From: a virus
Strand: one strand, 5' to 3'
Virus record (IMG/VR): IMGVR_UViG_3300028840_004913
Location: 1-64,000 of that record
DNA: 64,000 nucleotides
In this document: in pieces, positions 251-60,262 of the stretch
How the letters are laid out: every line of letters begins with the position of its first letter
Position numbering within the stretch: position 1 is the stretch's first letter
Program-made: the position numbers and the translations under genes
Notes under the pieces: generated by a model
What the model saw: only the letters and a program-made list of their open reading frames with translations
Told to the model about the DNA's origin: nothing
Databases searched by the model: none

Positions 251-487
251 TTAGTATTCTATGCATGATTCAACAAGCATCGGCTCTGTAATGGCCCATA
301 GGTCCTCGGGTAAAAATGCCGGCTCAAAAGTATGTGTCCTGCCGATCATACCCTTTGCAACATGCTGGACTGTTATTTTAACGAGAAAATTTTCCTGGAA
401 TTCAACGTCTATAAATGAGTCTGCCCAACACCCAAGTTGTTCTGATTTAATGCTTTTTTTAAATGCGAAGATTCTTGTTTTTTTCAT
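251..487 (-). CDS. Hypothetical protein, present in copy A only
   Basis: GGAGG RBS, directly downstream of a sigma28-like promoter; no counterpart near 60123. Confidence 0.75.
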   Translation of the reverse strand: MKKTRIFAFKKSIKSEQLGCWADSFIDVEFQENFLVKITVQHVAKGMIGRTHTFEPAFLPEDLWAITEPMLVESCIEY

Positions 488-520
488 TTTATCCTCCGTT
501 TTTTTGTTGTGTTAAACTTA

Positions 521-547
521 GTATCGGCCATCTGAAAATATACTTTA
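521..547 (-). promoter_or_regulatory. Sigma28 (FliA)-type promoter
   Basis: Minus strand TAAA-gtatattttcagatg-GCCGATAC, 15-nt spacer, upstream A-tracts. Confidence 0.8.
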
Positions 548-580
548 GCTTTTTTTTTATTTTTTTGTCAAGCTTTTTTT

Positions 581-611
581 TGCACCATTAAGAAAGTTTT
601 TGTGATACTAT
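581..611 (+). promoter_or_regulatory. TGCACCATT-box promoter, probably leaderless
   Basis: TGCACCATT-N13-TGa-TACTAT-N6-ATG(618). Confidence 0.8.
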
Positions 612-617
612 GTTCAC

Positions 618-1190
618 ATGCCTTATAAAAACGACACAGGATACCCATCGAGCACAGAAATTCTGTCTCCGTGGATAGACAAGGATTATTTCAAGCCTAT
701 CCATTCTGAGCGAGGAATGTCTGTCCATGGACAATGTGCTGCGAACCTATTAAATCTACCGGTATTGCCTCAGCATCGATGGCCTACATATTATGAATCA
801 TTCCTAAAGCTTAGGCCTCATATATTGGAGGTATACGTCGTTGAGATCAGATATGTTGATGAAGATCTTGGATTCTGTGGTCAGCCGGATCTTATCGCCA
901 GGATGGACGAAACATATAACAATTGGACTATTCTTTGGGATTGGAAAACATCCCAGGCACGTTATAAGTATTGGGGTCCTCAAACGGCCAGCTATAAACA
1001 CCTGGTCGAGACAAATACGGGGCTACCTATTGATCGATGCGCGACGGCCAGGCTTCGCGGACCAAATAATAATCCGCACCTTCCACCGCTTATTGATATT
1101 TTTCAGCCGGAGCAGACAGAATTCCATTGGCAGGTATTCTGTAACGCTCTGATAAACCATAACTTTTTTGGAGGTAAATATGGATATTGA
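618..1190 (+). CDS. PD-(D/E)XK nuclease (exonuclease-like)
   Basis: GQPDLIA...WDWKTS...Q..SY motifs; same operon as the RecT-like gene. Confidence 0.8.
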   Translation: MPYKNDTGYPSSTEILSPWIDKDYFKPIHSERGMSVHGQCAANLLNLPVLPQHRWPTYYESFLKLRPHILEVYVVEIRYVDEDLGFCGQPDLIARMDETYNNWTILWDWKTSQARYKYWGPQTASYKHLVETNTGLPIDRCATARLRGPNNNPHLPPLIDIFQPEQTEFHWQVFCNALINHNFFGGKYGY

Positions 1191-1905
1191 TTTAAGCGTG
1201 ACAAAAAAACCAGAAAGACACGATCTTGTTGTCCTGAAAATGGCCGATATTGTCGTGGATGACGCTGATTTCTCGATCAAGAATTTGGCTGTTTTCGGGA
1301 AAAAAATCATGCTCAAGATTGAAGCCATGCAGGAAGAGGCCAATTCATTTCGGGCTACCTCTGCAAACAAAGACGATGCCACAGAGAGAGGTGCACAGGC
1401 AAAAAAGCTTGCAACCCTATTCGACAAAAAACGACAGGCGTATAAAGAGCCATATCTTAGACATGGCAAAGAGATCGATTCGGTTTTAATGCCTATCGTT
1501 AAGGCGCTCAAGGATATCGAAAAAACCATGGGCTCCAAATTATCGAAGGTCCTTCATAAAGAGGCAGAGAAAAAACGCCAGGAGGAAGCGGCAGCCAGGG
1601 CTGCTGAGCAGGAAGCAGCCAGGGAGGTTGCAAGAATCACGAAACAAAAGATCGCCCCGCCTGTGGCCTCTCAGCCGGCCTACGCAATTCCGCAAAGGGT
1701 CCAGGCAGAGACTGGGTCCGCTGGATTGAAATACAAGCCAGAGTTTATTGTTGTGGATTCTCTGTCTGACGTCGATCCTGCGTACCTGCAGTTGAATGAA
1801 CGTGCATTGGCAGACGCCTACCGAAATGGTATGCGCGGGAAAGATATCAAAGGGATTATGATTAACGAGATCCCTGTAACCAGTTTCGCAAATAAAAGGA
1901 GCTAA
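1180..1905 (+). CDS. Coiled-coil hypothetical protein of the recombination operon
   Basis: GGAGG before ATG 1180; conserved in copy B. Confidence 0.8.
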
Positions 1906-1907
1906 AA

Positions 1908-3557
1908 ATGTCAGAAAAAAATTTACCGGCAATCCCGGTCGAAAAAGGCGAGATAGCCCCTAATGACATAGAGGGTCTTTGGTGGCTTGCAAATAGATTT
2001 TCAAACTCCGGAATGGTGCCAAAGGCATATATAAATTCTCCGGAAAAGGTTATCGTCGCCTGGGACATGGGCCTTTCCCTCGGACTAAACCGGACTGCAG
2101 CCCTTCAGAATATCGCGGTTATAAACGGCATGCCATCCGTTTGGGGTGACGCTGCCCTCGGGCTCGTTCAGAATTGTGATGAGTTTGAGGACTGCATCGA
2201 AACCTTCGCCGGAGAAATGTGGGCTGGCGATAAGATCAATAAGAATTTCAAGGCTATATGCCGCATAAAGCTGAAGAACCGCGAAGATGTTGTTAGGGAA
2301 TTCTCTATCGGCGAGGCGATATTGGCCGACTTGTGGGGGAAAGATATCTGGAAAAAATATCCGAAAAGAATGCTTCAAATGAGGGCCAGGTCCTGGGCTA
2401 TCCGCGACGCCTTACCTGGAGCCCTTAAAGGTTTGAAAGTCGCCGAGGAAGCAATGGATTATGACGTCGACCTTGTGAAAGCATCCGACGGAACATTCAT
2501 TCCGGAATCCACCGAAATGACAGATGATGATCTCGCCGAGGCCATAAAAGCAAGATATGATACTGATACCCCTGTTGATTTTATCCGGTATTTAATAGAC
2601 ACAATGCACGCGAATGATGCGACAGCAAAAGATTTCCTCGATTATATCGAGAACCATGGCGCAGAATTACTCGCGGGGTATAACGCGAACGTTGTCGACG
2701 CTGATTTCCAACCACCGGAAGAACCGGAAACTTCTGAGCCAGAGGCCGTTGAACCCGAGGCCGTTGAACCCGAGGTGGTTGAACCAGAGGTGGTTGAACC
2801 AGAGGTGGTTGAACCCGAACAGGAAGAGGTTATAGCTGACGGGTGGATAGCCCCCGGGTGGGCAGCGGAAAACGTCGATCTTATCAATCTTGCATGTAAA
2901 TTTAAAGCGTCGCTTAAAAATGTCGTCGATTGGATAGAAATTATTTGCGATCGCCAAAATCTTGGGCCTGGTGATGTCGTCGTGTATATCGAAAAACACA
3001 TGGACAGGGCAGAGAAAACATTCGGCGAATATATCGAAGAAAATCGCCGTGATGCATCCGTAGCCGGCGAAGAGGTCGCCGAGGATACCGACGTCGCAAA
3101 AGAAGAACCAGACCAGGAGAAGGCGCCAATGTCGCCGGCCGCCGAGGTCAGGATGTTCAACCATATGTCCGCGGCAGATCTTGAAGTATGGGTAAACGAA
3201 AACCTCGATACTGTCAAGGTGTTTTCAGATGAATCCCGCCAAAAGCTGGTTGACAAATGGAATCGCCTGGTAAAGAAGCCTTTCCCTGGGAGCCAGGAAG
3301 AGCCTAAAAAGGCAGAGCCGGACAGGGAAGTAAACGATAATGGTCCGGACCTTAATGAGATCGAGGACAGGAAGAAAGAAAAGATCAGGACCAGGCTCGT
3401 TTATTTGCGTAAAACATATCCGAATACCTGTGAAGAGATCAGGGAGAAACACGGATTCGGCCAGATGGTTAGCAGCGACGACGCAGCAAGAATATGGGTT
3501 GATGATGTGCTCGACCTGCTATCGAAGAAAAAATCTGAGGGAAAGGAATTGAACTGA
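1908..3557 (+). CDS. RecT-like single-strand annealing protein with long acidic C-terminus
   Basis: [16 protein letters not shown] and [20 protein letters not shown] motifs. Confidence 0.85.
2736..2819 (+). repeat. 15-bp coding tandem repeat, ~5.6 copies (EPE[A/V]V)
   Basis: Units such as gaacccgaggccgtt and gaaccagaggtggtt. Confidence 0.95.
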
Positions 3558-3844
3558 TGAAACGCCTACCGGATGAATCCTTCGAGGATTATAAGAAGCG
3601 CAGGAAGCTCGCGAATGAGGAAACAAAAGCAAGGCTAAAGGGTAGAAGGGTGTTCGAGTCAACATACCTGTCCCTTGAGAAGGACCCCGAAACAGGTGAC
3701 GAGAAAGTAGTTATAAAAACAAAGACTTACCAGCGCGGAAAGAATGGCCTATCCATGTCTCAGGCAGACAAAAACAGATATGATGCTTTGCTAAGAAAGG
3801 CAGAAAGGAAAGCGAAAAATGCAGATGAAAATACCAAACATTAA
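3557..3844 (+). CDS. Small basic hypothetical protein
   Basis: TGATG-coupled ORF; conserved in copy B. Confidence 0.8.
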   Translation: MKRLPDESFEDYKKRRKLANEETKARLKGRRVFESTYLSLEKDPETGDEKVVIKTKTYQRGKNGLSMSQADKNRYDALLRKAERKAKNADENTKH

Positions 3845-4481
3845 ATTCGATTTGGACGGATGCCTTATTGATTGGTCCTCATATTTCAGGGCATTAATGA
3901 ACAATATGGGATTTACTGTCAGAGATACCGGTGGGTTTTATTGGGATCTATACAATGAAAAAGGGCAAAAATTAAGCTATGAAGATGCCTCTTATTTTGT
4001 TTATGCGTCCATGGAGCATGTCGAAGAATTTCACCCAATGCCTGGAGCCAGATCGTTTCTGACATGGTTTTACGAATTTACAAACCGTCCGGTACAGGTG
4101 ATAACCCATAGGCCATACCAGGTAGCAGGGTACACTCACCAGGTTTTTGAGAGGCTATTCCCAGGGGTCCCGTTCACAATTTCCTTTGTTTTAAATACGT
4201 CTGACAAGCCGTTGTTTATGGGCGATTCAATTATTTTTTATGAAGATCGCCGCAAGACGGCAGTCGAAATGGCCGAGCTCGGGTTCACAGTTTTTATGCC
4301 AATGCGTGACTATAATTGGCCGATATCAGAGTGCACAGTACCGGTCGTCGAGCTTAATAAACTCGACCCAAAAATAGAATACCAGGGTGGTCCTTGGCTT
4401 AAGGATGGTGGCAGGATTATAGCCGTGTATTCAATACTGGACCTGCAGGACAAGCGGGTGGTGAACCTTCTATTCAAATAG
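3819..4481 (+). CDS. HAD-family 5'(3')-deoxyribonucleotidase-like protein
   Basis: FDLDG motif I, PMPGA, ITHR, YED. Confidence 0.8.
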   Translation: MQMKIPNIKFDLDGCLIDWSSYFRALMNNMGFTVRDTGGFYWDLYNEKGQKLSYEDASYFVYASMEHVEEFHPMPGARSFLTWFYEFTNRPVQVITHRPYQVAGYTHQVFERLFPGVPFTISFVLNTSDKPLFMGDSIIFYEDRRKTAVEMAELGFTVFMPMRDYNWPISECTVPVVELNKLDPKIEYQGGPWLKDGGRIIAVYSILDLQDKRVVNLLFK

Positions 4482-4500
4482 CCCATGCCGGAAAAAGAAC

Positions 4501-4523
4501 GGGGGAGCGTGGGCGGCTCCCCC
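4501..4523. terminator. Hairpin between convergent operons
   Basis: GGGGGAGC...GCTCCCCC stem. Confidence 0.65.
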
Positions 4524-4529
4524 AAACAT

Positions 4530-4967
4530 TTATTCTGGCTTTTTCTTCAAGCTCTTTACAATATCTATCGCCGGCTGAGCGGTCTTTTCAATCGACCGGC
4601 CGACAATGTACCCACCAAGGCCATACTTCAAAAGCGTGAATACTTCAACAAGAACAGACTCCGTTATGTATTCTGGCTTTATCCCAAACCATGTCAGGAA
4701 TAAAAGGAATAGAAATCCGAGCATGGTTATCGGGCGCCAGGACCTCGTAAGCCACGACTCTGAATTCGCCTCAGCCATTATGATATCGCGCTGTGCGGCA
4801 ATCGTGGCCATCAATTCCTGGTGGTTCATCCCCATTACTGTCAAGGATATTTCCTGCTTCAACTTCTCGGCGAGGTCCTTATCTGGAACTGCCTTGTCGA
4901 TAACCCCTATCACCTTATCAAGGATCTTGCCGACAACTGGAAGCGCGGCTAAAATTGGGAATGCCAT
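4530..4967 (-). CDS. Holin (3TM holin-like)
   Basis: IMAEANSESWLTRSWRP motif and TM segments; next to the endolysin. Confidence 0.85.
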   Translation of the reverse strand: MAFPILAALPVVGKILDKVIGVIDKAVPDKDLAEKLKQEISLTVMGMNHQELMATIAAQRDIIMAEANSESWLTRSWRPITMLGFLFLLFLTWFGIKPEYITESVLVEVFTLLKYGLGGYIVGRSIEKTAQPAIDIVKSLKKKPE

Positions 4968-5389
4968 TATACCCCCCTCCGCATAATATCAGAAAGCTCT
5001 ATCGCCCTTACACCAACCTGCTCGGCCCATTTTGAGTCAAGCATTTCAATGGCAGCAATGTGAAAATCCTCACCCTGCATGGCGGCGATAAACTTTTTGA
5101 ATTTGCTCAATTTTGTATATCCGAGATTAAACATCATATTGAATAGAACCTCCTGGCGCTTTTCATTAAGATGATATAATCCGTTTACAGATATAAACTT
5201 TTCATGATCTTCGAGGACGATGGAAAGGTCATAAGAAAGAATAGACTCCCAAATATGATCCGGAAGCTTCGAACCCTCATGAAAGGCATGACCATAACCA
5301 CCAGTAGGCACCCCGACGGTATCGATGTAAATACTATCGCGGTATCCCTCGTGGCGCATTATATCCTGTTTAACTTTTTTCCAATTCAT
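4967..5389 (-). CDS. Endolysin, T4-like lysozyme (GH24)
   Basis: HEG...YIDTVGVPTGGYGH, NMMFNLG, EMLDSKWAEQV. Confidence 0.9.
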   Translation of the reverse strand: MNWKKVKQDIMRHEGYRDSIYIDTVGVPTGGYGHAFHEGSKLPDHIWESILSYDLSIVLEDHEKFISVNGLYHLNEKRQEVLFNMMFNLGYTKLSKFKKFIAAMQGEDFHIAAIEMLDSKWAEQVGVRAIELSDIMRRGV

Positions 5390-38398: not shown

Positions 38399-38429
38399 AT
38401 AATACCATGGATTTGTATTTAATGGTGCA
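38399..38429 (-). promoter_or_regulatory. TGCACCATT-box promoter
   Basis: TGCACCATT-N13-TGg-TATTAT. Confidence 0.8.
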
Positions 38430-41181: not shown

Positions 41182-41212
41182 ATTATATCACGATTAATGT
41201 CAGAATGGTGCA
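41182..41212 (-). promoter_or_regulatory. TGCACCATT-box promoter
   Basis: TGCACCATT-N13-TGa-TATAAT. Confidence 0.8.
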
Positions 41213-46041: not shown

Positions 46042-46680
46042 TTAAGTTAAGTCTCCAAAAACACGGAGGATTTTATTAACATTCGCAGACACGGTCGAAG
46101 CCCATACCCCGAGCTCCGAAGCGATCTCACCTTGTTTTAAAAGTCTGTCAAAATATAGCTCGCCGATATTCCTCGATAGCTCTGTCGGGAATTGCTCATC
46201 TTTTATTTTTTCCCAATAATCTCGCTTTGCCTTCTTTTTAATGAGCTCACGCTTAGCTGTCTGGTGGCGCATATCGACTGCCTGGTCAGTTATGCCGAGG
46301 ATCTCAGCTATTTCACAATTTCGTTTTCCCTCGAGATAATACAACTCGAGATACTCCCAGGACTTCTTGCTTATGTTCAATCCCTTAAGGATCTCCATTG
46401 CTTTGTCCTGTTCATCTGAGTCCCAACCGATTTCAACCCCGTGATTTAAGTACATAATATCAACAAAGTCAAATTTGCTTTCGTCTGTATCTCCGGCGGC
46501 TCCATTAAGCATTACTTCCTTGTGGGGTGAGGGGTTGCGAAAATCCTGGCTTATCCATCGTTCAACGGCGGCACATGGCTTTTTAGTCTCAAGACAAACC
46601 TTATTCTTGCATTCTGTGCAATCCTTAGGCCTGTCGTTCGCTACCTTCGCCCTCCGGAAGGGGGGTTTCAGATTCTGCAT
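46042..46680 (-). CDS. Protein with two sigma70 region-4-like HTH domains and an N-terminal Cys cluster
   Basis: LYYLEGKRNCEIAEILGIT and LYFDRLLKQGEIASELGV; CTECKNKVC..PC. Confidence 0.75.
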   Translation of the reverse strand: MQNLKPPFRRAKVANDRPKDCTECKNKVCLETKKPCAAVERWISQDFRNPSPHKEVMLNGAAGDTDESKFDFVDIMYLNHGVEIGWDSDEQDKAMEILKGLNISKKSWEYLELYYLEGKRNCEIAEILGITDQAVDMRHQTAKRELIKKKAKRDYWEKIKDEQFPTELSRNIGELYFDRLLKQGEIASELGVWASTVSANVNKILRVFGDLT

Positions 46681-49343: not shown

Positions 49344-49374
49344 ATTATAACACCTTTTTTGCGTTAATGGTGCA
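49344..49374 (-). promoter_or_regulatory. TGCACCATT-box promoter
   Basis: TGCACCATT-N13-TGt-TATAAT. Confidence 0.8.
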
Positions 49375-53562: not shown

Positions 53563-53860
53563 TTTTAAATGATACCACAACTTTGTCGATAATGGTGCAT
53601 GGATCGTCAGACAAATACAAAAAGGCCAGGTGCTCAGCGATAGCGTCCTCCTCATCCTCCCTTATCGGGCGCCCGAGCGAGATTTCTATCCGCTCCAAAA
53701 GCATCAAGGCCAGCATCCGGCGAAAATATTTTTCTTTTGCGCTTCTTAGGTTTCTCTTCGCTATGTCATATGATATCCCGAGGTCCTCAGCTATCTCATT
53801 CACAGGTACAAGCTCTTCTGACTCCGGTTTTTTTCCTGGTTTTGATCCTGGTACAATCAT
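53552..53860 (-). CDS. HTH protein (sigma region-4-like)
   Basis: VNEIAEDLGISYDIAKRNLRSAKEK. Confidence 0.65.
   Translation of the reverse strand: MIVPGSKPGKKPESEELVPVNEIAEDLGISYDIAKRNLRSAKEKYFRRMLALMLLERIEISLGRPIREDEEDAIAEHLAFLYLSDDPCTIIDKVVVSFKNGN
53569..53599 (-). promoter_or_regulatory. TGCACCATT-box promoter inside the upstream gene
   Basis: TGCACCATT-N13-TGg-TATCAT-N6-ATG(53562). Confidence 0.8.
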
Positions 53861-54338: not shown

Positions 54339-54542
54339 TTAGATCTCCCTTTTAGTTTTGATCAACCGAATGTGATCGTGTTTGATATCGCTGACAAACA
54401 TTGCAGCCTTAGCCATACTAAAAAATCCGAATGATGCGAAATGATCTTTACTCTCTACTGTTACAATTATCATCCCGCTGTCTAACTTATTTACCTGAGC
54501 CCTGAGGCCGTTCTTAAATGTTTCATCGAATGTCATTTTCAT
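54339..54542 (-). CDS. Hypothetical early protein
   Basis: GGAGG RBS after a sigma28-like promoter. Confidence 0.7.
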   Translation of the reverse strand: MKMTFDETFKNGLRAQVNKLDSGMIIVTVESKDHFASFGFFSMAKAAMFVSDIKHDHIRLIKTKREI

Positions 54543-54567: not shown

Positions 54568-54594
54568 ATATCGGCAGATTCTAAAATAACTTTA
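54568..54594 (-). promoter_or_regulatory. Sigma28-type promoter
   Basis: TAAA-gttattttagaatct-GCCGATAT. Confidence 0.8.
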
Positions 54595-54673
54595 GCTCTT
54601 TTTTTACATTAATGAAAATAAAATTGCAACCCCACCCCAGGCAAAAAGAATTAAAATTAAGAAGCCAATTAAA

Positions 54674-54931
54674 TTATTTGATTTTCTCGATCTCAAGATC
54701 CGTCCTCCCGCAAATTGAACATGTCAAATTCAATGTGTTAATGTCATTATGTAGGCATTTAAAATTATCTGCTCCCACAATGACACGCCTCGCACGATTG
54801 CCTCTTCCCCGTGTAACGAGCTCAAACTTTCCCTTATCCTTACCCGTCTTGATTAGCCTGGCAGCGTATGCCGGCCGCCATCCGTCACCGTAAAACGTCC
54901 CTACTACTGTTCTCAGGTCCTCAGTCGTCAT
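54674..54931 (-). CDS. Hypothetical protein
   Basis: ATG 54931 with RBS; C-terminal CSIC. Confidence 0.55.
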   Translation of the reverse strand: MTTEDLRTVVGTFYGDGWRPAYAARLIKTGKDKGKFELVTRGRGNRARRVIVGADNFKCLHNDINTLNLTCSICGRTDLEIEKIK

Positions 54932-55073
54932 TTCCCTTAACTCGTGGGCTCTGTTCTGGATGTTCTTTTTCAACGTGGTCCTCCAATTCGTCGCATGTGA
55001 ATCCCTTTTTAAACGGAGTGCAAAAGGGGCATTGGTATTTGCCGGCGACATGTTTATATCTTTGTTTTGCCAT
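54921..55073 (-). CDS. C2H2 Zn-finger microprotein
   Basis: CPFC...F....L..H....H. Confidence 0.6.
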   Translation of the reverse strand: MAKQRYKHVAGKYQCPFCTPFKKGFTCDELEDHVEKEHPEQSPRVKGNDD

Positions 55074-55278
55074 TGCAAAATCTCCATATCTCGAGAGTGT
55101 TATATCCGCAATCAAAGCAATGGGTTATCGAATCGTCCTCTTCGACCTTTACCCAGGTATTTTCGCTTGAGCAATCTAAGCACGGCTCAGGTATAGACCG
55201 CATCCACTCGACCTCACATTCGTCACAGCAAAAAATATCGTGTAAATTTATTGGGTTAAAGCAATTAAGACAGAACAT
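55054..55278 (-). CDS. Cys-rich microprotein
   Basis: GGAGG RBS; multiple CxxC. Confidence 0.6.
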   Translation of the reverse strand: MFCLNCFNPINLHDIFCCDECEVEWMRSIPEPCLDCSSENTWVKVEEDDSITHCFDCGYNTLEIWRFCNGKTKI

Positions 55279-55326
55279 TTAAAACCTCCAATGGGGGAGC
55301 CGAAGCTCCCCCCGTAAGCCTTTGAT

Positions 55327-56340
55327 TTATTTTCCGATCAGGGCCTTGGCTGCTGCGAACGCCTTGGCTTTCATGGACCGGCCGGCACCAGACACGGCGG
55401 CCTTAAACCGGTTATTGATCGATCGAGCAGGTTTCTCGTGATCGATATACTCGGTAACCGCATTCAGGGCACCCCACAGGGTACGGTATGAGGTTTTGAG
55501 CTCGGCGCCACGGCCATCAAGGAAGCCCTGCATAATTTTAAGGAAGGCTTTCTTTTTTGCATTCGGGCGCTCTTTCCAGGTTTTCTTGAGCTCTTCGGCG
55601 TCGAATACGATCTCAGCGAAAAACTTGAATGCCTCGGTGGTCGGCATGGTATGCTTTACCATTTCCTGGCACAGTCTGGAGAATTCAAGCCAACCGAGCT
55701 CGATAAGGCCTGCTTCCAATTTGACCTGGGCGGCATCAAACTTTTCGGTATGCGGGACCTTTATCACAGTCGGACCCTCTTCTCCGTTCTCTGAGGCGGC
55801 AATCGCAAACTCCAATGTGTTATTGCAAACAACGCGAATTGACGTAAACATAAGGGTGGTAGCCAGCGACGTATCATAGCTCGTCATGAGCAAGACATAG
55901 GGATAGACCTCATCACCGTCTCCCAGGTCGACACAGTCGCCGACTTCGGCCAGAGCCCAAACACGCTTTCCGTCGTCCAAGGATCCAGCGGTATGGATAC
56001 GGAAGCCGTGAAGCTCGATAAGATCGCGATAGAATTCAAGGATCTCGTGCGGCTGGACAACGTTATATCCTTCGGATACTATTGATAGGGGTGAGAAATT
56101 ATCTGTCCGGAAAAGGACCTTCCGAGTAGGCATGTCAGCCTCGATCTTCGCGTCGCGAAAACCACCGGCTATTTCGTATTTGACGATTGACTCCATAACC
56201 CGCCAATCTAAATGAGCTTTCTTTTCCCACTCCTCGATAGTTGCATTGGGGTCTACCTGTTGTCCAAGTCCATGCCAAGGTTTGTCGCCAACATAAGCCA
56301 TGCTGTGTTCGCCGTTGATTTCGTAAACTTTGTGACTCAT
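55327..56340 (-). CDS. DUF932-family protein
   Basis: PWHGLG, TAGSL..GKRVW, TSIRVVCNNTL, WGALNAVTEYIDH. Confidence 0.9.
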   Translation of the reverse strand: MSHKVYEINGEHSMAYVGDKPWHGLGQQVDPNATIEEWEKKAHLDWRVMESIVKYEIAGGFRDAKIEADMPTRKVLFRTDNFSPLSIVSEGYNVVQPHEILEFYRDLIELHGFRIHTAGSLDDGKRVWALAEVGDCVDLGDGDEVYPYVLLMTSYDTSLATTLMFTSIRVVCNNTLEFAIAASENGEEGPTVIKVPHTEKFDAAQVKLEAGLIELGWLEFSRLCQEMVKHTMPTTEAFKFFAEIVFDAEELKKTWKERPNAKKKAFLKIMQGFLDGRGAELKTSYRTLWGALNAVTEYIDHEKPARSINNRFKAAVSGAGRSMKAKAFAAAKALIGK

Positions 56341-56395
56341 AATTTTTCTCCTTTGTTGATTGTTTTTGTTGGTATTTCTCTGACTCTACTATTTA

Positions 56396-56422
56396 TTATC
56401 GGCAATGTCAATATAAACTTTA
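56396..56422 (-). promoter_or_regulatory. Sigma28-type promoter with nested sigma70 promoter
   Basis: TAAA-gtttatattgacatt-GCCGATAA; TTGACA-N17-TAGAGT. Confidence 0.85.
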
Positions 56423-56471
56423 GCTTTTTTTTATTTTTTTTTGGCGGCCCGGGGAGGCACCGCCAATCTGG

Positions 56472-56690
56472 TCAGATGTCATTCCTCAACTTCGTGATTG
56501 TGGCCATTAGATCTTGAGCTTGCAGGGCGGCAACCCTAAGGTCACCAGCGGCATCGTCATTCATTACCATAACTCTGAATTGGCCCAGGGTATCTTCGAC
56601 CGCGAACATTTGCTTTTCAAGAATTCTTGCCAAAGATTTGTTGCACTCATTAACACCCTCGCTGAAAGCGTCCATCGATTTACTTGCCAT
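56472..56690 (-). CDS. Hypothetical protein
   Basis: GGAGG RBS. Confidence 0.7.
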   Translation of the reverse strand: MASKSMDAFSEGVNECNKSLARILEKQMFAVEDTLGQFRVMVMNDDAAGDLRVAALQAQDLMATITKLRNDI

Positions 56691-56708
56691 TTTTACCTCC
56701 CTCAGTTT

Positions 56709-56903
56709 TTAATTAATTTCGTTACCGTTATCATCTTCCATCCTGAGATACCCACCACAACTGACGAGATCTTGATAATAAGGATCAAATGAATTATGCG
56801 AGGTCAATTCTTCGAAGCGAGCAATACATTCGTCTTTTGTATCATACTCCTCTATCGCGTTTGCCCCATTATCATTTGTCTGTTCTATTATTTTGTATTT
56901 CAT
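56709..56903 (-). CDS. Hypothetical acidic protein
   Basis: GAGG RBS after promoter. Confidence 0.7.
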   Translation of the reverse strand: MKYKIIEQTNDNGANAIEEYDTKDECIARFEELTSHNSFDPYYQDLVSCGGYLRMEDDNGNEIN

Positions 56904-56946
56904 TTTGGCCTCGTTTTTGTGATGATTCCGTATCGTACTATGAATA

Positions 56947-56973
56947 TTATCGGCATGTCAAGAATAAACTTTA
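56947..56973 (-). promoter_or_regulatory. Sigma28-type promoter with nested TTGACA
   Basis: TAAA-gtttattcttgacat-GCCGATAA; TTGACA-N18-TACGAT. Confidence 0.85.
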
Positions 56974-56991
56974 GCTTTTTTTTATTTTTTT

Positions 56992-57495
56992 TTACATTAT
57001 TTTTTGGCGAAGCTTGTCAGCGATCTCAAGCTTCCGTTTTATTTCGTTTTTCAAGCGCACCCTCTCTTCATTAAGCCTATCTATATCTGAGCTCAAATCA
57101 TAATATAGCTTTTCTCCAGGGCTCATATCGTCTGTCTGTATCAAAAAGGTTCCATAATAACTGCTTTCTGAAACCCTGACAGGGCGACCCTCAAGTAGCT
57201 TCGACCCCCTGTAAAAACAAGCTTCTCGAGACATATCGACATTTGTGTCGCGAACAATAACTTTTACTTTTGCTCTTTTGCGAGGATATTCATTTTGCCT
57301 TTCTATGCGTTCGAATGTCAGGGCATACGTTGCCTTAGGCGCCAGGTTAAGGGCGATTTCATCAAGGAATCCCTCGTGGTATCCAAGGTTTTTTATTGAC
57401 CTGCCCTCGACATCACCCTCGGTATGTACTTTCCAATAGCCAAATGCCGGATGATCTTCTTTTTTATTCATGATGCCTCCCCTCAATATAATCAC
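56992..57495 (-). CDS. Hypothetical phage protein
   Basis: WKVHTEGDVEGRS..LGYHEG; real start probably MNKK. Confidence 0.7.
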   Translation of the reverse strand: MIILRGGIMNKKEDHPAFGYWKVHTEGDVEGRSIKNLGYHEGFLDEIALNLAPKATYALTFERIERQNEYPRKRAKVKVIVRDTNVDMSREACFYRGSKLLEGRPVRVSESSYYGTFLIQTDDMSPGEKLYYDLSSDIDRLNEERVRLKNEIKRKLEIADKLRQKIM

Positions 57496-57817
57496 CTGAA
57501 ATTAAAATAAATTCTACCCTTAGAATATCCTTAATTTTAACATCGCCAAGGGCCTTTATGGCGTCGACAAGCAGCCTCGATATTCTCCTGGCTACCATTT
57601 CGGACCCTGGCATCTGATACATTTCCCACCATTCACGGTGGAATTTCGTCCTCGCTAACCGGTCAATAACGGCGTCGCCCCTTCCCTCGTACGCCATTCT
57701 TATTGATCGCTTCCGCAAAAAATTTGGCTCAGTATCGGCGCAACCAAACCGACTGCTTTTCCTGATGTAATTTTCAAGGGCATCCAATTTTTTCGCAAAT
57801 TTTAATACTCTGTCCAT
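57464..57817 (-). CDS. Hypothetical protein
   Basis: ORF with RBS. Confidence 0.65.
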   Translation of the reverse strand: MDRVLKFAKKLDALENYIRKSSRFGCADTEPNFLRKRSIRMAYEGRGDAVIDRLARTKFHREWWEMYQMPGSEMVARRISRLLVDAIKALGDVKIKDILRVEFILISGDYIEGRHHE

Positions 57818-57844
57818 TTCAATAATCCTTTCTGTTGTTATTTT

Positions 57845-58024
57845 TTATTGACCCCAAATGCCGACATCCTCATTACTCAACTCGTCCGGATCAAGAAACT
57901 CTGGATATTCAGCAAGGTTGTCCTGGTTGAATAGCCGTTCCTTTTCCCGAGCCTCTTCAATATATTTCGTATACTCCTTTACCGCATGTTTTTGCCATCC
58001 CTGGCGCTGTCCTTTTGCTGGCAT
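57845..58024 (-). CDS. Hypothetical protein
   Basis: ATG 58024 after GGGGG. Confidence 0.6.
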   Translation of the reverse strand: MPAKGQRQGWQKHAVKEYTKYIEEAREKERLFNQDNLAEYPEFLDPDELSNEDVGIWGQ

Positions 58025-58025
58025 G

Positions 58026-58166
58026 TCATTCCCCCTTTTCAATTTCAAAGTATTCACCGCATTCGTCACATTGCTCGGCGCCCAACGGTACCTCAGTCTC
58101 ATTATCGCATCCGCAATTCGGGCACTCCCATTCCCACCTGTAAGCGTAAGCTGTTGCTTTTTCCAT
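58026..58166 (-). CDS. 46-aa Zn-ribbon microprotein (not in ORF track)
   Basis: MEKATAYAYRWEWECPNCG...QCDECGEYFEIEKGE. Confidence 0.65.
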   Translation of the reverse strand: MEKATAYAYRWEWECPNCGCDNETEVPLGAEQCDECGEYFEIEKGE

Positions 58167-58337
58167 TTATTTAGTCCTTTCGTATTTCCTGCCGATTATA
58201 AATGCACAAACGATAGCTGAGAATATTAGAACCGGCGCAGGGTTTTCGATAAAGTCCTGTACCCAATGAATAATAACAAATCCCAAAAATAGAAAACCAA
58301 GAATACCACCGATTATTTCTAAAATTTTATCCCACAT
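58167..58337 (-). CDS. 56-aa two-TM microprotein (not in ORF track)
   Basis: MWDKILEIIGGILGFLFLGFVIIH...VLIFSAIVCAFIIGRK. Confidence 0.6.
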   Translation of the reverse strand: MWDKILEIIGGILGFLFLGFVIIHWVQDFIENPAPVLIFSAIVCAFIIGRKYERTK

Positions 58338-58538
58338 TATTGATCCCCCTAATCAAAGTAAAGTCTGGTTATAAGTTTTTCAGATCTGTCCAGGTCGCGG
58401 ATATCGCCGGTCCTCAAATACTGTTTATATGCTCGGCGGCACGCCCTCTTGTGGCGGGTTACGGCGTCCTGGACTTCTTCTTTGCTCCATATGGTAAATT
58501 TCGGTTTATAATCTTTTATGACATTGTATCCGGCCATT

Positions 58539-58913
58539 TTATTTTCCCTCAAAAAATTCTTTGGTGTATTCATCGATCTTTTCAAAAGAAAGACCCTGCT
58601 TCCAGAAAAAATGCTCGACGTCCTGCTTGAATTCCATATCGACGTCCTCGGCATCCATCAGCCACCGGATAGCCGTCTTTCTATCAGGGGCACCAATACT
58701 GATTGTGTATTCGATCATTTCCTCGAATACCCGAAGGCTTTCGGCCTGATTGACGGCCTCTAAAGCCATATTTGCCTTGGTGAGGTCACAGAGATATTCG
58801 ATCTCAATATCGAGATCTTCCTGCGTCCACCATTCTTTATAATGGCCACGAGGACGGAAACCGTGGGCGTCTTTGAAGAGATCTGAAAGGCATGTTTCTG
58901 AAATGTGTATCAT
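58539..58913 (-). CDS. Conserved phage hypothetical protein
   Basis: SDLFKDAHGFRPRG motif; GGAGG RBS. Confidence 0.75.
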   Translation of the reverse strand: MIHISETCLSDLFKDAHGFRPRGHYKEWWTQEDLDIEIEYLCDLTKANMALEAVNQAESLRVFEEMIEYTISIGAPDRKTAIRWLMDAEDVDMEFKQDVEHFFWKQGLSFEKIDEYTKEFFEGK

Positions 58914-58957
58914 TTTTACCTCCTGAAAAGTTGTTGTTTTCCCCTTACTATACCATA

Positions 58958-58984
58958 GTATCGGCACATGTCAAGAATACTTTA
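58958..58984 (-). promoter_or_regulatory. Sigma28-type promoter with nested sigma70 promoter
   Basis: TAAA-gtattcttgacatgt-GCCGATAC; TTGACA-N16-TATAGT with extended TG. Confidence 0.85.
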
Positions 58985-59157
58985 GGACTTTTTTTAATTT
59001 TTTTTCAAGGGCAAATAATTCAGAGGCTGCGTTGTGGCCATGGAGCCCTATCTCTATGTGCTCCTCTGTCAGATCTCTGAATTTACTTGTTACCTCTATA
59101 ATAGATTCCCTGGCCTGCTCAAGTATTTCTATGTCCCTTTTTAAAAGGGCCTTTATT

Positions 59158-59355
59158 TCAGGATTCATAATCCCCCCGGTATTTTTCTTTTCGAGTATAA
59201 CGTTTTTTGTCCCTGTGCACCTGAGTCTCTCTAACCGTAGGCTTACGGACCTTTGTGTAATGGGGAGCCCTCCAGCCGCACCGCCGGCACTCCCCACTCT
59301 TTGTCATTGCAGAACCACAAGCCTCGCACCTTATCCTAAACATAGACCGAGACAT
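59158..59355 (-). CDS. Zn-ribbon basic microprotein
   Basis: CEAC...CRRC; GGGGG RBS. Confidence 0.6.
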   Translation of the reverse strand: MSRSMFRIRCEACGSAMTKSGECRRCGWRAPHYTKVRKPTVRETQVHRDKKRYTRKEKYRGDYES

Positions 59356-59441
59356 GACAACCCCCTAATCTTATTCGTTTTGACCTGTTCGCCCGGGCCA
59401 TAGCCTGTTTTATTGCCGCAAACTGCGACAGCCTCTTAAGC

Positions 59442-59648
59442 TCAACTTTCGCATTCTTCTTGCTCGATTGAACACTCTGTATTTGTAATTGGTACTTCAT
59501 TTAGAATAACCTCCATTTCCTTAAATGCCGCGACCCTGGCCGCGAAAATTTCGTCGACAAGACCCTTACCTTCCAATATAGATTGCTCTTTTGACCTTTC
59601 TGCCAGATATAGCCGAAGTCGTTCCACCGTCATAAACCCATCTCCCAT
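59442..59648 (-). CDS. Hypothetical protein
   Basis: ORF in the early operon. Confidence 0.5.
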   Translation of the reverse strand: MGDGFMTVERLRLYLAERSKEQSILEGKGLVDEIFAARVAAFKEMEVILNEVPITNTECSIEQEECES

Positions 59649-60123
59649 TTAATTTGATATAACCCATTTCGACCAATATAGGATCCTTCGGGCTCGAGAA
59701 TCCGGCCTGTTCTGACCTGCGAATAACCCGCAAGTTTAGCTCTTCTCTCTTTTGGAATTTCCTCCAGAAATTAATAAGCCGCATAAACTCATCGGCGAAT
59801 TCTTGCCCATGGGGTTTGAGCCGTTTATCCACCTGGGTATTGGCATAGATGTGAGCCAACTCATGCAGCACAACCCATACGCTGTGTCTATATATTTTTA
59901 CTCTGCGCTGTCTCGGCCAGGCAGTACCCAGGCGCCTCGAACATTTCCTGTTTGACAATTCAACTGTAGCACCCTTTAGTTGATATGCATTCTGGTACTG
60001 CCGCATGAACTCAAGCATCGGCTTTTTTTCTTTTTCTATAATGGTGTTGTTCAGCCTGAGAGCGTATGCGTAAATGACCTTAACCTTCGAATTGCCTGTC
60101 CCGATGTTGTTCATGTATTTCAT
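59566..60123 (-). CDS. SprT-like zincin metallopeptidase
   Basis: LHELAH...HG..F motif; spans the A/B junction. Confidence 0.75.
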   Translation of the reverse strand: MKYMNNIGTGNSKVKVIYAYALRLNNTIIEKEKKPMLEFMRQYQNAYQLKGATVELSNRKCSRRLGTAWPRQRRVKIYRHSVWVVLHELAHIYANTQVDKRLKPHGQEFADEFMRLINFWRKFQKREELNLRVIRRSEQAGFSSPKDPILVEMGYIKLNGRWVYDGGTTSAISGRKVKRAIYIGR

Positions 60124-60159
60124 TTTTCCCTCCGTTGGTTTTTTGTTGCGTTACAAACT

Positions 60160-60186
60160 GTATCGGTCACCTGAAAATAAACTTTA
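60160..60186 (-). promoter_or_regulatory. Sigma28-type promoter (copy B)
   Basis: TAAA-gtttattttcaggtg-ACCGATAC. Confidence 0.75.
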
Positions 60187-60231
60187 GCATTTTTTTTATT
60201 TTTTTGTCAACATTTTTTTTAAATATTTTTT

Positions 60232-60262
60232 TGCACCATTCCTGGCATAGTTGTGGTAGTAT
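60232..60262 (+). promoter_or_regulatory. TGCACCATT-box promoter, probably leaderless (copy B)
   Basis: TGCACCATT-N13-TGg-TAGTAT-N6-ATG(60269). Confidence 0.8.

Follow-up and report, generated by a model that had tools for sequence, protein, structure and literature searches.

We examined a 64,000-nucleotide window (positions 1 to 64,000 of IMG/VR record IMGVR_UViG_3300028840_004913, which is 103 kb in full) from an uncultured phage of ~59.7 kb, in which several blocks of small genes on the minus strand are preceded by near-perfect copies of the promoter that bacteria use for late flagellar genes. Six sites read CTAAAGT-N13-(G/A)CCGATA, each in an intergenic gap behind an A-tract and in the same orientation as the gene that follows. 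Two of them, at 521-547 and 60160-60186, are the same promoter (P1) seen in two ~78%-identical genome variants, A and B, that are joined in one record, and thus each genome has five sites. The genes downstream that were scanned encode SprT-like, DUF932 and WYL_2-like proteins and proteins of unknown function (Table 1).

Table 1. Positions of sigma-28-type sites, overlapping sigma-70-type elements and associated genes in the window
Position	Strand	Feature	Sequence	Associated gene or remark
60160-60186	minus	P1 (variant B), sigma-28-type promoter	-35 TAAAGTTT, 11-nt spacer, -10 ACCGATAC	ATG at 60123
60181-60210	minus	Sigma-70-like promoter	TTGACA-N18-TGcTAAAGT	Its -10 hexamer is the -35 box of P1
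59566-60123	minus	First gene after P1		185-aa SprT-like zincin (Pfam E 2e-5, just below the cut-off)
58958-58984	minus	Sigma-28-type promoter	TAAAGTAT-N11-GCCGATAC	ATG at 58913 (124-aa protein, phrog_21968)
58947-58974	minus	Nested sigma-70 promoter	TTGACA-N16-TATAGT (11 of 12, with TG)	Its -35 lies inside the sigma-28 spacer
56947-56973	minus	Sigma-28-type promoter	TAAAGTTT-N11-GCCGATAA (16 of 16)	ATG at 56903 (64 aa)
56932-56961	minus	Nested sigma-70 promoter	TTGACA-N18-TACGAT	
56396-56422	minus	Sigma-28-type promoter	perfect match (16 of 16)	ATG at 56340
56383-56411	minus	Nested sigma-70 promoter	TTGACA-N17-TAGAGT	
55327-56340	minus	First gene after the promoter at 56396-56422		DUF932 protein (337 aa, Pfam 6e-53, phrog_1221)
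54568-54594	minus	Sigma-28-type promoter, no TTGACA-type sigma-70 partner	TAAAGTTA-N11-GCCGATAT	ATG at 54542 (67 aa), followed by a 92-aa WYL_2-like gene
53569-53599	minus	First of six class II promoters	TGCACCATT-N13-TGnTAnnnT	Marks the end of the block served by the sigma-28-type promoters
46042-46680	minus	P0001, the only sigma-like gene		212 aa; Cys-rich N-terminus, two sigma region-4-like HTH domains, no region 2
521-547	minus	P1 (variant A), sigma-28-type promoter	TAAAGTAT-N11-GCCGATAC, with TTGACA-N18-TAAAGT upstream (542-571)	ATG at 487 starts a 78-aa gene that variant B lacks

Motif, spacing and nested sigma-70 elements

The sites described in the first-pass annotation are all present, and its observation is confirmed. 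The pattern TAAAGT-N13-RCCGATA gives six matches against 0.03 expected from 100 dinucleotide shuffles, and the full 16-base consensus gives two matches against 0.01 expected. A scan of spacings from N5 to N25 finds matches only at N13, all six on the minus strand, and the whole record holds no further site. The published sigma-28 consensus, TAAAGTTT-n11-GCCGATAA (PMC2859248), is matched in all 16 positions at two sites and in 14 of 16 at the other four. TAAAGT is present in six of six sites and the full TAAAGTTT in three, whereas GCCGATA is present in five and ACCGATA in one, with the full GCCGATAA in two. The 11-nt spacer between the octamers is found in six of six sites. A ribosome-binding site and ATG follow 25-55 nt after each -10 box, and the 30 nt upstream are 60-90% A+T.

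Two points of that annotation required correction. It counted six sites, although a genome has five. Additionally, its claim that the boxes are kept between variants A and B while neighbouring bases differ is only weakly supported, as the whole A/B intergenic region is 83% identical and the 27-nt promoter itself carries three differences, including G to A at the first base of the -10 box.

It is also evident that most of these sites share their DNA with sigma-70-type elements, which the annotation understated. Three sites hold a full TTGACA-N16-18-TAnnnT promoter nested in the same DNA, and at P1 the TAAAGT box doubles as the -10 of an upstream sigma-70-like promoter. Thus four of the five sites per genome carry such an element, with first hexamers at 58974, 56961, 56411 and 60210 (571 in variant A), scoring 10-11 of 12 and constituting four of the five best sigma-70-like hits in the region, although P1 arguably lacks a strong sigma-70 alternative. 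TTGACA sits at three different offsets inside an unchanged TAAAGT-N13-GCCGATA frame, which argues for two independent overlapping signals rather than one. Early expression is therefore unlikely to depend on sigma-28 alone.

Sigma genes, related phages and a possible host

We found no recognisable sigma factor encoded by the phage itself. Six-frame searches of the complete record returned no match to Sigma70_r2 (PF04542) or FliA_WhiG (TIGR02479) at E up to 10 and no full ECF-type match, as TIGR02937 matched only through region 4 of P0001. A fold of P0001 predicted from a single sequence was uninformative (pLDDT 50), and one predicted from an alignment (pLDDT 82) matched only region-4 domains. 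P0001 more likely serves the class II promoters, whose box changes together with P0001 in relatives. A search for an FlgM-like phage gene and a search of the region for known RNA families each found none. No flagellin domain was found among the downstream proteins scanned, which left out several of the smallest ORFs in these units, and no integrase among the proteins scanned overall.

The promoter set is not conserved in the clade. Searches of IMG/VR with the DUF932 protein, DnaB and the RecT-like protein (used as an A/B alignment) found only distant kin or nothing, and megablast against cultured phages found nothing. Relatives G002-G004, the closest cultured phage and five Desulfovibrionaceae prophage-bearing genomes have no such cluster, the search covering portal-related Desulfovibrionaceae prophages and Rhizobium phage RHph_TM3_14A. 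Of two further relatives, which use plain sigma-70 early promoters, L014 has one composite site, and L016 keeps TAAAGTTT and TTGACA at the P1 position but lacks GCCGATA, so TAAAGTTT can also exist as plain upstream DNA of a sigma-70 promoter.

In contrast, the promoter type is widespread across IMG/VR. The exact 16-base consensus was found in at least 118 stretches, several with 3-10 sites, against 40 singletons for the reversed control. Of the forward sites, 66 of 122 lie outside any 80-codon open frame, against 0 of 33 control sites, and 75 of 122 have a ribosome-binding site and start codon within 80 nt, against 5 of 33 control sites. Eight of 123 distinct sites are the same nested sigma-28/sigma-70 composite. 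Five multi-site contigs, only 20-67% complete, also lacked a sigma gene.

Similarity of RtcB (56%) and of the portal (35-41% identical in 9 of 401 genomes, against 1 of 401 phylum-wide) points only weakly to a host among the Desulfovibrionaceae. FliA is present in four of four genomes tested from that lineage and in a fifth from Synergistaceae. There, ccTAAAGT-N13-(G/T)CCGATAA behind an A-tract precedes a flagellin gene and an flgM gene. However, only 5 of 20 flagellin loci in the five genomes show a recognisable box pair upstream, one of them degenerate (TAAACT / GCCGAAA), so the host-family consensus rests on few sites. No CRISPR spacer link was found, as short high-identity blastn hits in Desulfovibrionaceae genomes are not in repeat arrays.

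A possible dual-sigma early programme

We suggest, with a probability of roughly 0.6, that these are working promoters of the sigma-28 (FliA/SigD) class that head the first five transcription units of the leftward arm of the phage. In this view, host core RNA polymerase carrying the flagellar sigma factor of the host would bind TAAAGT(T/A)(T/A) and (G/A)CCGATA at their fixed 11-nt octamer spacing, helped by the upstream A-tract as an UP-like element. Transcription would start a few bases after the -10 box, giving 25-55-nt leaders before small accessory genes. As a consensus sigma-70 promoter is interleaved at three sites, with its -35 in the sigma-28 spacer and its -10 just downstream, and a sigma-70-like promoter uses the TAAAGT box at P1, the early block would be dual-input, in that either holoenzyme could start it, and one unit (54568-54594) has only the sigma-28 boxes. 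The motif, its spacing and placement, the nesting and the absence of a phage sigma with region 2 are established by our analysis. That sigma-28 holoenzyme reads the sites, that the host has an active FliA and that the genes are early are inferences from sequence alone, the last resting only on map position and gene type.

The first-pass annotation had proposed that the phage starts its early programme with the host motility sigma, tying infection to the flagellated state or to a host phase dominated by FliA, and knew of no described phage regulon of this kind. This interpretation is partly supported. The sites match the sigma-28 consensus in sequence, spacing, orientation and position before genes, the phage has no recognisable sigma of its own, and we found no published phage early regulon on sigma-28 in the open-access literature searched, which excludes most subscription journals. 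However, dependence on FliA, gating by FlgM and a tie between infection and the flagellated state remain conjecture.

Other readings are possible but less likely. The two boxes may be an operator, bound by a phage or host protein that switches off or modulates early promoters that are really sigma-70 promoters. P0001 is one candidate, as it could place one HTH on each box and its weak best PDB sequence match is the sigma-28 family member WhiG (E 0.1). Four of the five promoters could work through sigma-70 alone, and the plain sigma-70 early promoters of L014 and L016 are also consistent with this idea. We consider it unlikely, because two sites equal the sigma-28 consensus at all 16 positions and all six have its exact spacing, because the same bipartite motif precedes flagellin and flgM in bacterial genomes and heads genes in many unrelated phage contigs whose fetched parts show no P0001 homologue, and because the site at 54568-54594 has no TTGACA to repress. 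P0001 also has a better candidate target in the class II box.

It is similarly unlikely that a phage-encoded factor reads the sites, whether an unrecognisably diverged sigma or a virion-delivered protein that redirects host core polymerase. About half of the phage proteins have no family match, and a 2988-aa probable ejection protein is present. However, recognition of GCCGATAA requires a sigma region 2, of which six-frame searches gave no signal, and the promoters head what appear to be the first genes to enter and be expressed, so a factor made later could not start them. The absence of a sigma gene from the five incomplete multi-site contigs also weighs against this reading. Least probable is that no factor reads the boxes, which would then be leftovers of promoter DNA copied from host flagellar genes or by-products of A/T-rich UP-element and spacer sequence, with only the sigma-70 promoters mattering. 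The P1 position in L016 and the lack of conservation in relatives are compatible with this. Yet five independent sites per genome keep both boxes at one exact spacing, both core boxes (TAAAGT and CCGATA) survive at P1 in two diverged variants, one site and arguably P1 lack a strong sigma-70 alternative, and the same architecture recurs in unrelated phages far above the control rate.

Relation to known systems and implications

The closest counterparts are the class 3 flagellar and chemotaxis promoters read by sigma-28 (FliA of E. coli and Salmonella; SigD of B. subtilis; PMC2859248), which share both octamers, the 11-nt spacing, the orientation before genes and an A/T-rich upstream region. Here, the promoters would drive phage accessory genes rather than motility genes, and most are physically interleaved with a consensus sigma-70 promoter. 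Prophage-borne fliCP flagellin genes next to TldR, reported as likely recruiting the host FliA/sigma-28 programme (PMC10705468), likewise represent a phage genome carrying a promoter of the host's flagellar sigma class, and are the only case we found in print. That case is a single lysogenic-conversion flagellin gene in a temperate phage, whereas here five promoters head the first non-structural gene blocks. The phages phiEco32 and 7-11 (PMC8948821) also repeat a dedicated, non-sigma-70 promoter class along the genome, as is the case for regulons run by SPO1 gp28 and T4 gp55. Those phages encode the sigma and the class serves middle or late genes, whereas this record has no sigma with region 2 and the class sits at the start of the inferred programme.

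Textbook phage programmes start on the housekeeping sigma of the host or on a phage polymerase, and alternative sigmas in phage biology are normally phage-encoded and act late. More tentatively, the phage may wire the start of infection to the motility state of its host, with its first genes read by FliA holoenzyme, which is free only in cells that have completed a flagellum and exported FlgM, and with interleaved sigma-70 promoters acting as a second input. This would be expected for a phage that adsorbs to flagella or meets mainly swimming cells. Because dozens of unrelated uncultured phages carry the same promoter type, this would be a general, undescribed strategy of phage early transcription, and our IMG/VR scan suggests that the phenomenon is common in uncultured phages. 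A lytic-type phage that starts on the host's flagellar sigma would link infection success to a cell-state checkpoint, the release of FliA from FlgM, giving a molecular reason why motile cells might be better hosts, and would also provide compact natural dual-sigma promoters.

Sigma-28-type sites and their genomic setting

We found the pattern TAAAGT-N13-RCCGATA six times in the window, always on the minus strand, against 0.03 occurrences expected from shuffled sequence. The full 16-base consensus TAAA-N15-GCCGATAA occurs twice against 0.01 expected, and allowing two mismatches adds only two weak plus-strand hits inside genes. A scan of spacings from N5 to N25 gave matches at N13 only, and the whole 103-kb IMG/VR record, of which the window is the first 64 kb, has no further site. 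Each site is preceded by 30 nt that are 60-90% A+T, mostly A-runs, and is followed after 25-55 nt by a ribosome-binding site and ATG. Two sites match the published sigma-28 consensus TAAAGTTT-n11-GCCGATAA (PMC2859248) at 16 of 16 positions, and the other four match at 14 of 16. Thus, the observation made in the first-pass annotation, that minus-strand intergenic sites resemble flagellar sigma-28 promoters, is real and far beyond chance.

The record holds about 1.7 copies of a ~59.7-kb genome as two variants (~78% identical; 73-81% across the long repeats) that are joined through an exact 144-nt overlap, which is probably an assembly join of two co-occurring strains rather than a natural concatemer. 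Two of the six sites are therefore one promoter (P1) seen in both variants, and a genome has five sites. Variant A has an extra 78-aa gene between P1 and the SprT-like gene that variant B lacks, showing gene turnover directly behind the promoter.

The genome comprises a rightward recombination operon (PD-(D/E)XK nuclease, RecT-like protein) and a long leftward arm. The arm begins with roughly 6.6 kb of small genes, including an SprT-like protein, a DUF932 protein, a WYL_2-like protein and many with no family match, continues with replication and nucleotide genes (DnaB, SSB, ThyX), and ends with TerS, TerL, portal, major capsid, a 2988-aa protein and a holin. The five sigma-28-type promoters all lie in the first 6 kb of this arm, and the next promoter downstream, at 53599, belongs to a different class. 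The closest cultured phage is Rhizobium phage RHph_TM3_14A (60.9 kb), with the capsid protein 52.5% identical and the portal 32%.

A mechanical sigma-70 scan of 53.5-60.5 kb ranked four promoters that overlap sigma-28-type sites among its five best hits. In three of them TTGACA lies inside the 11-nt sigma-28 spacer and the -10 hexamer lies just after GCCGATA. TTGACA sits at three different offsets while the TAAAGT-N13-GCCGATA frame stays fixed, as two independent overlapping signals would look. At P1 the TAAAGT box itself serves as the -10 of an upstream TTGACA-N18 promoter in both variants, with a TG extension in variant B. One site has no TTGACA partner.

Positions of promoter-like sites and associated features (window coordinates unless another sequence is named)
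Feature	Position	Strand	Description
Sigma-28-type site, P1 in variant A	522	-	TAAAGT-N13-RCCGATA
Sigma-28-type site	54569 (54568-54594)	-	TAAAGT-N13-RCCGATA; no TTGACA partner
Sigma-28-type site	56397	-	TAAAGT-N13-RCCGATA
Sigma-28-type site	56948	-	TAAAGT-N13-RCCGATA
Sigma-28-type site	58959	-	TAAAGT-N13-RCCGATA
Sigma-28-type site, P1 in variant B	60161	-	TAAAGT-N13-RCCGATA
Sigma-70 promoter	first hexamer at 58974		TTGACA-16-TATAGT
Sigma-70 promoter	first hexamer at 60210		TTGACA-18-TAAAGT
Sigma-70 promoter	first hexamer at 56961		TTGACA-18-TACGAT
Sigma-70 promoter	first hexamer at 56411		TTGACA-17-TAGAGT
Class II site	581-611	+	TGCACCATT-N13-TGnTAnnnT
Class II site	38399-38429	-	TGCACCATT-N13-TGnTAnnnT
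Class II site	41182-41212	-	TGCACCATT-N13-TGnTAnnnT
Class II site	49344-49374	-	TGCACCATT-N13-TGnTAnnnT
Class II site	53569-53599	-	TGCACCATT-N13-TGnTAnnnT
Class II site	60232-60262	+	TGCACCATT-N13-TGnTAnnnT
Recombination operon	618 to 4481		rightward
Leftward arm	starts at about 60186		leftward
Extra gene in variant A	251-487	-	78 aa
P0001	46042-46680	-	212 aa
Exact overlap joining the variants	1-144 equals 59887-60030		144 nt
rtcB RNA ligase gene	L262 1254-2510 (record 99.7-101 kb)	-	in one variant only
Site cluster in L133 (IMGVR_UViG_3300010392_003462)	458-5037		ten co-oriented TAAA-N15-GCCGATA sites

Candidate readers of the boxes

Six-frame searches of the complete record found no sigma region 2 (PF04542), no FliA/WhiG (TIGR02479) and no FlgM. 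The general sigma-70/ECF model matched only through region 4 of one protein, P0001, which belongs to a small, unannotated family of about 40 representative proteins. The family alignment shows a Cys-rich, zinc-ribbon-like N-terminus followed by two region-4-like HTH units, and an AlphaFold model built on that alignment (pLDDT 82) matches only isolated region-4 domains in the PDB and no whole sigma. In the sigma-70 family, recognition and melting of a GCCGATAA -10 element needs region 2, which P0001 lacks.

P0001 also has a better candidate target, in a second promoter class whose six sites compare with 0.03 expected. These class II sites stand before the recombination operon, the replication operon, the tRNA locus and the packaging genes. 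In the syntenic relatives L014 and L016 the same map positions carry a different box, GGTTAACAAAA, before an extended -10. L016, like L013 and L015, also carries a diverged P0001 homologue, whereas tblastn found none in the part of L014 examined. A box that changes in relatives whose regulator has also diverged fits a phage-specific activator that replaces -35 recognition, although this link is inferred.

Relatives, a host lead and occurrence in other viral contigs

We found no close relative in IMG/VR, but four distant syntenic relatives share 10-20 genes with the window. L014 has three consensus sigma-70 early promoters, the first of which also carries TAAAGTTT, a nested TTGACA and GCCGATAG, the same composite as here. 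L016 keeps TAAAGTTTTTACTTGACA at that position but has no GCCGATA, and the other relatives and the Rhizobium phage have no site. The sigma-28 boxes therefore look like a lineage-specific overlay on ancestral sigma-70 early promoters, and TAAAGTTT alone is not proof of a sigma-28 promoter.

The closest matches of the rtcB gene among species-representative genomes are a Desulfovibrionaceae MAG (56%), a MAG labelled only Proteobacteria (54%) and Halodesulfovibrio aestuarii (52%). The portal protein has homologues 33-41% identical at E of 1e-100 or better in 9 of 401 Desulfovibrionaceae genomes, whereas a 401-genome sample of the whole phylum gave 1 hit at E of 1e-60 or better. Prophage-like regions in that family (L431, L433 and L436, from genomes G303, G347 and G235) also share the capsid protein (53-54%), a TerL (43% in one) and part of the 2988-aa protein, but have 50-65% GC and no sigma-28-type promoter clusters. 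This is a moderate lead and not an identification, from comparisons that did not extend to other phyla, and no CRISPR spacer match was found.

FliA is present in all five genomes tested, four of the Desulfovibrionaceae lead and one Synergistaceae. A blastn of the 40-60 kb stretch of the phage against 301 Desulfovibrionaceae genomes picked out the phage promoter regions themselves, and the matched host DNA includes aaaaagtccTAAAGTTATTTTTGAACCCTCCGATAa, about 100 nt before a flagellin gene (Pfam 6e-38), and agaccTAAAGTTTTTTTGATATGTGCCGATAa, before an flgM gene (Pfam 1e-12). Only 5 of 20 flagellin loci in five such genomes show a box pair of this kind upstream, one of them degenerate (TAAACT / GCCGAAA). 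Thus, in the genomes tested, the candidate host family has the sigma factor, and the same box type, with a preceding C and in some cases an A-tract, stands before its class-3-type genes.

An exact scan of IMG/VR for TAAAGTTT-N11-GCCGATAA returned at least 118 stretches, with several contigs carrying 3-10 sites, whereas the same pattern read backwards gave 40 stretches, all with a single site. Of the forward sites, 66 of 122 lie outside any 80-codon open frame, against 0 of 33 reversed controls, and 75 of 122 have a ribosome-binding site and start codon within 80 nt downstream, against 5 of 33. About 36 forward sites lie inside long frames, which is roughly the chance background, and a C precedes TAAAG in 61% of forward sites. 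Eight of 123 distinct sites are nested sigma-28/sigma-70 composites like those here, where we estimate that well under one is expected. The densest cluster seen is in L133, an unrelated 30-kb viral contig with ten sites in 5.5 kb, each about 25-35 nt before a ribosome-binding site and ATG of a small gene. Five multi-site contigs have no sigma gene in sequences that are only 20-67% complete.

A proposed dual-input reading of the promoters

While the sites, their spacing and their overlap with sigma-70 elements are shown by the analysis, their reading by sigma-28 holoenzyme is inferred, and the genes are judged early from map position and gene type alone. On present evidence, rival readings cannot be excluded. 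The boxes may be an operator for a phage HTH protein, they may be read by an unrecognised phage factor, or they may be read by no factor; we consider each of these unlikely. The better candidate target of P0001 in the class II box counts against the operator reading, and the lack of a sigma region 2 in the complete record counts against a phage-encoded reader, whereas the L016 sequence, which keeps one box without the other, counts in favour of boxes that no factor reads.

The proposal in the first-pass annotation that the phage starts its early programme with the host motility sigma is partly supported. Its suggested tie between infection and the flagellated state is attractive but remains a hypothesis. 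Our search of an open-access library yielded no phage early regulon on sigma-28, and the nearest published case is the prophage flagellin gene fliCP, said to recruit the host FliA programme (PMC10705468). Against published knowledge, the arrangement described here is a new use of a known promoter class. The best reading, with a probability of about 0.6, is that host sigma-28 holoenzyme reads these promoters and that most of them double as sigma-70 promoters. The start of infection would then have two inputs rather than depending on FliA alone.
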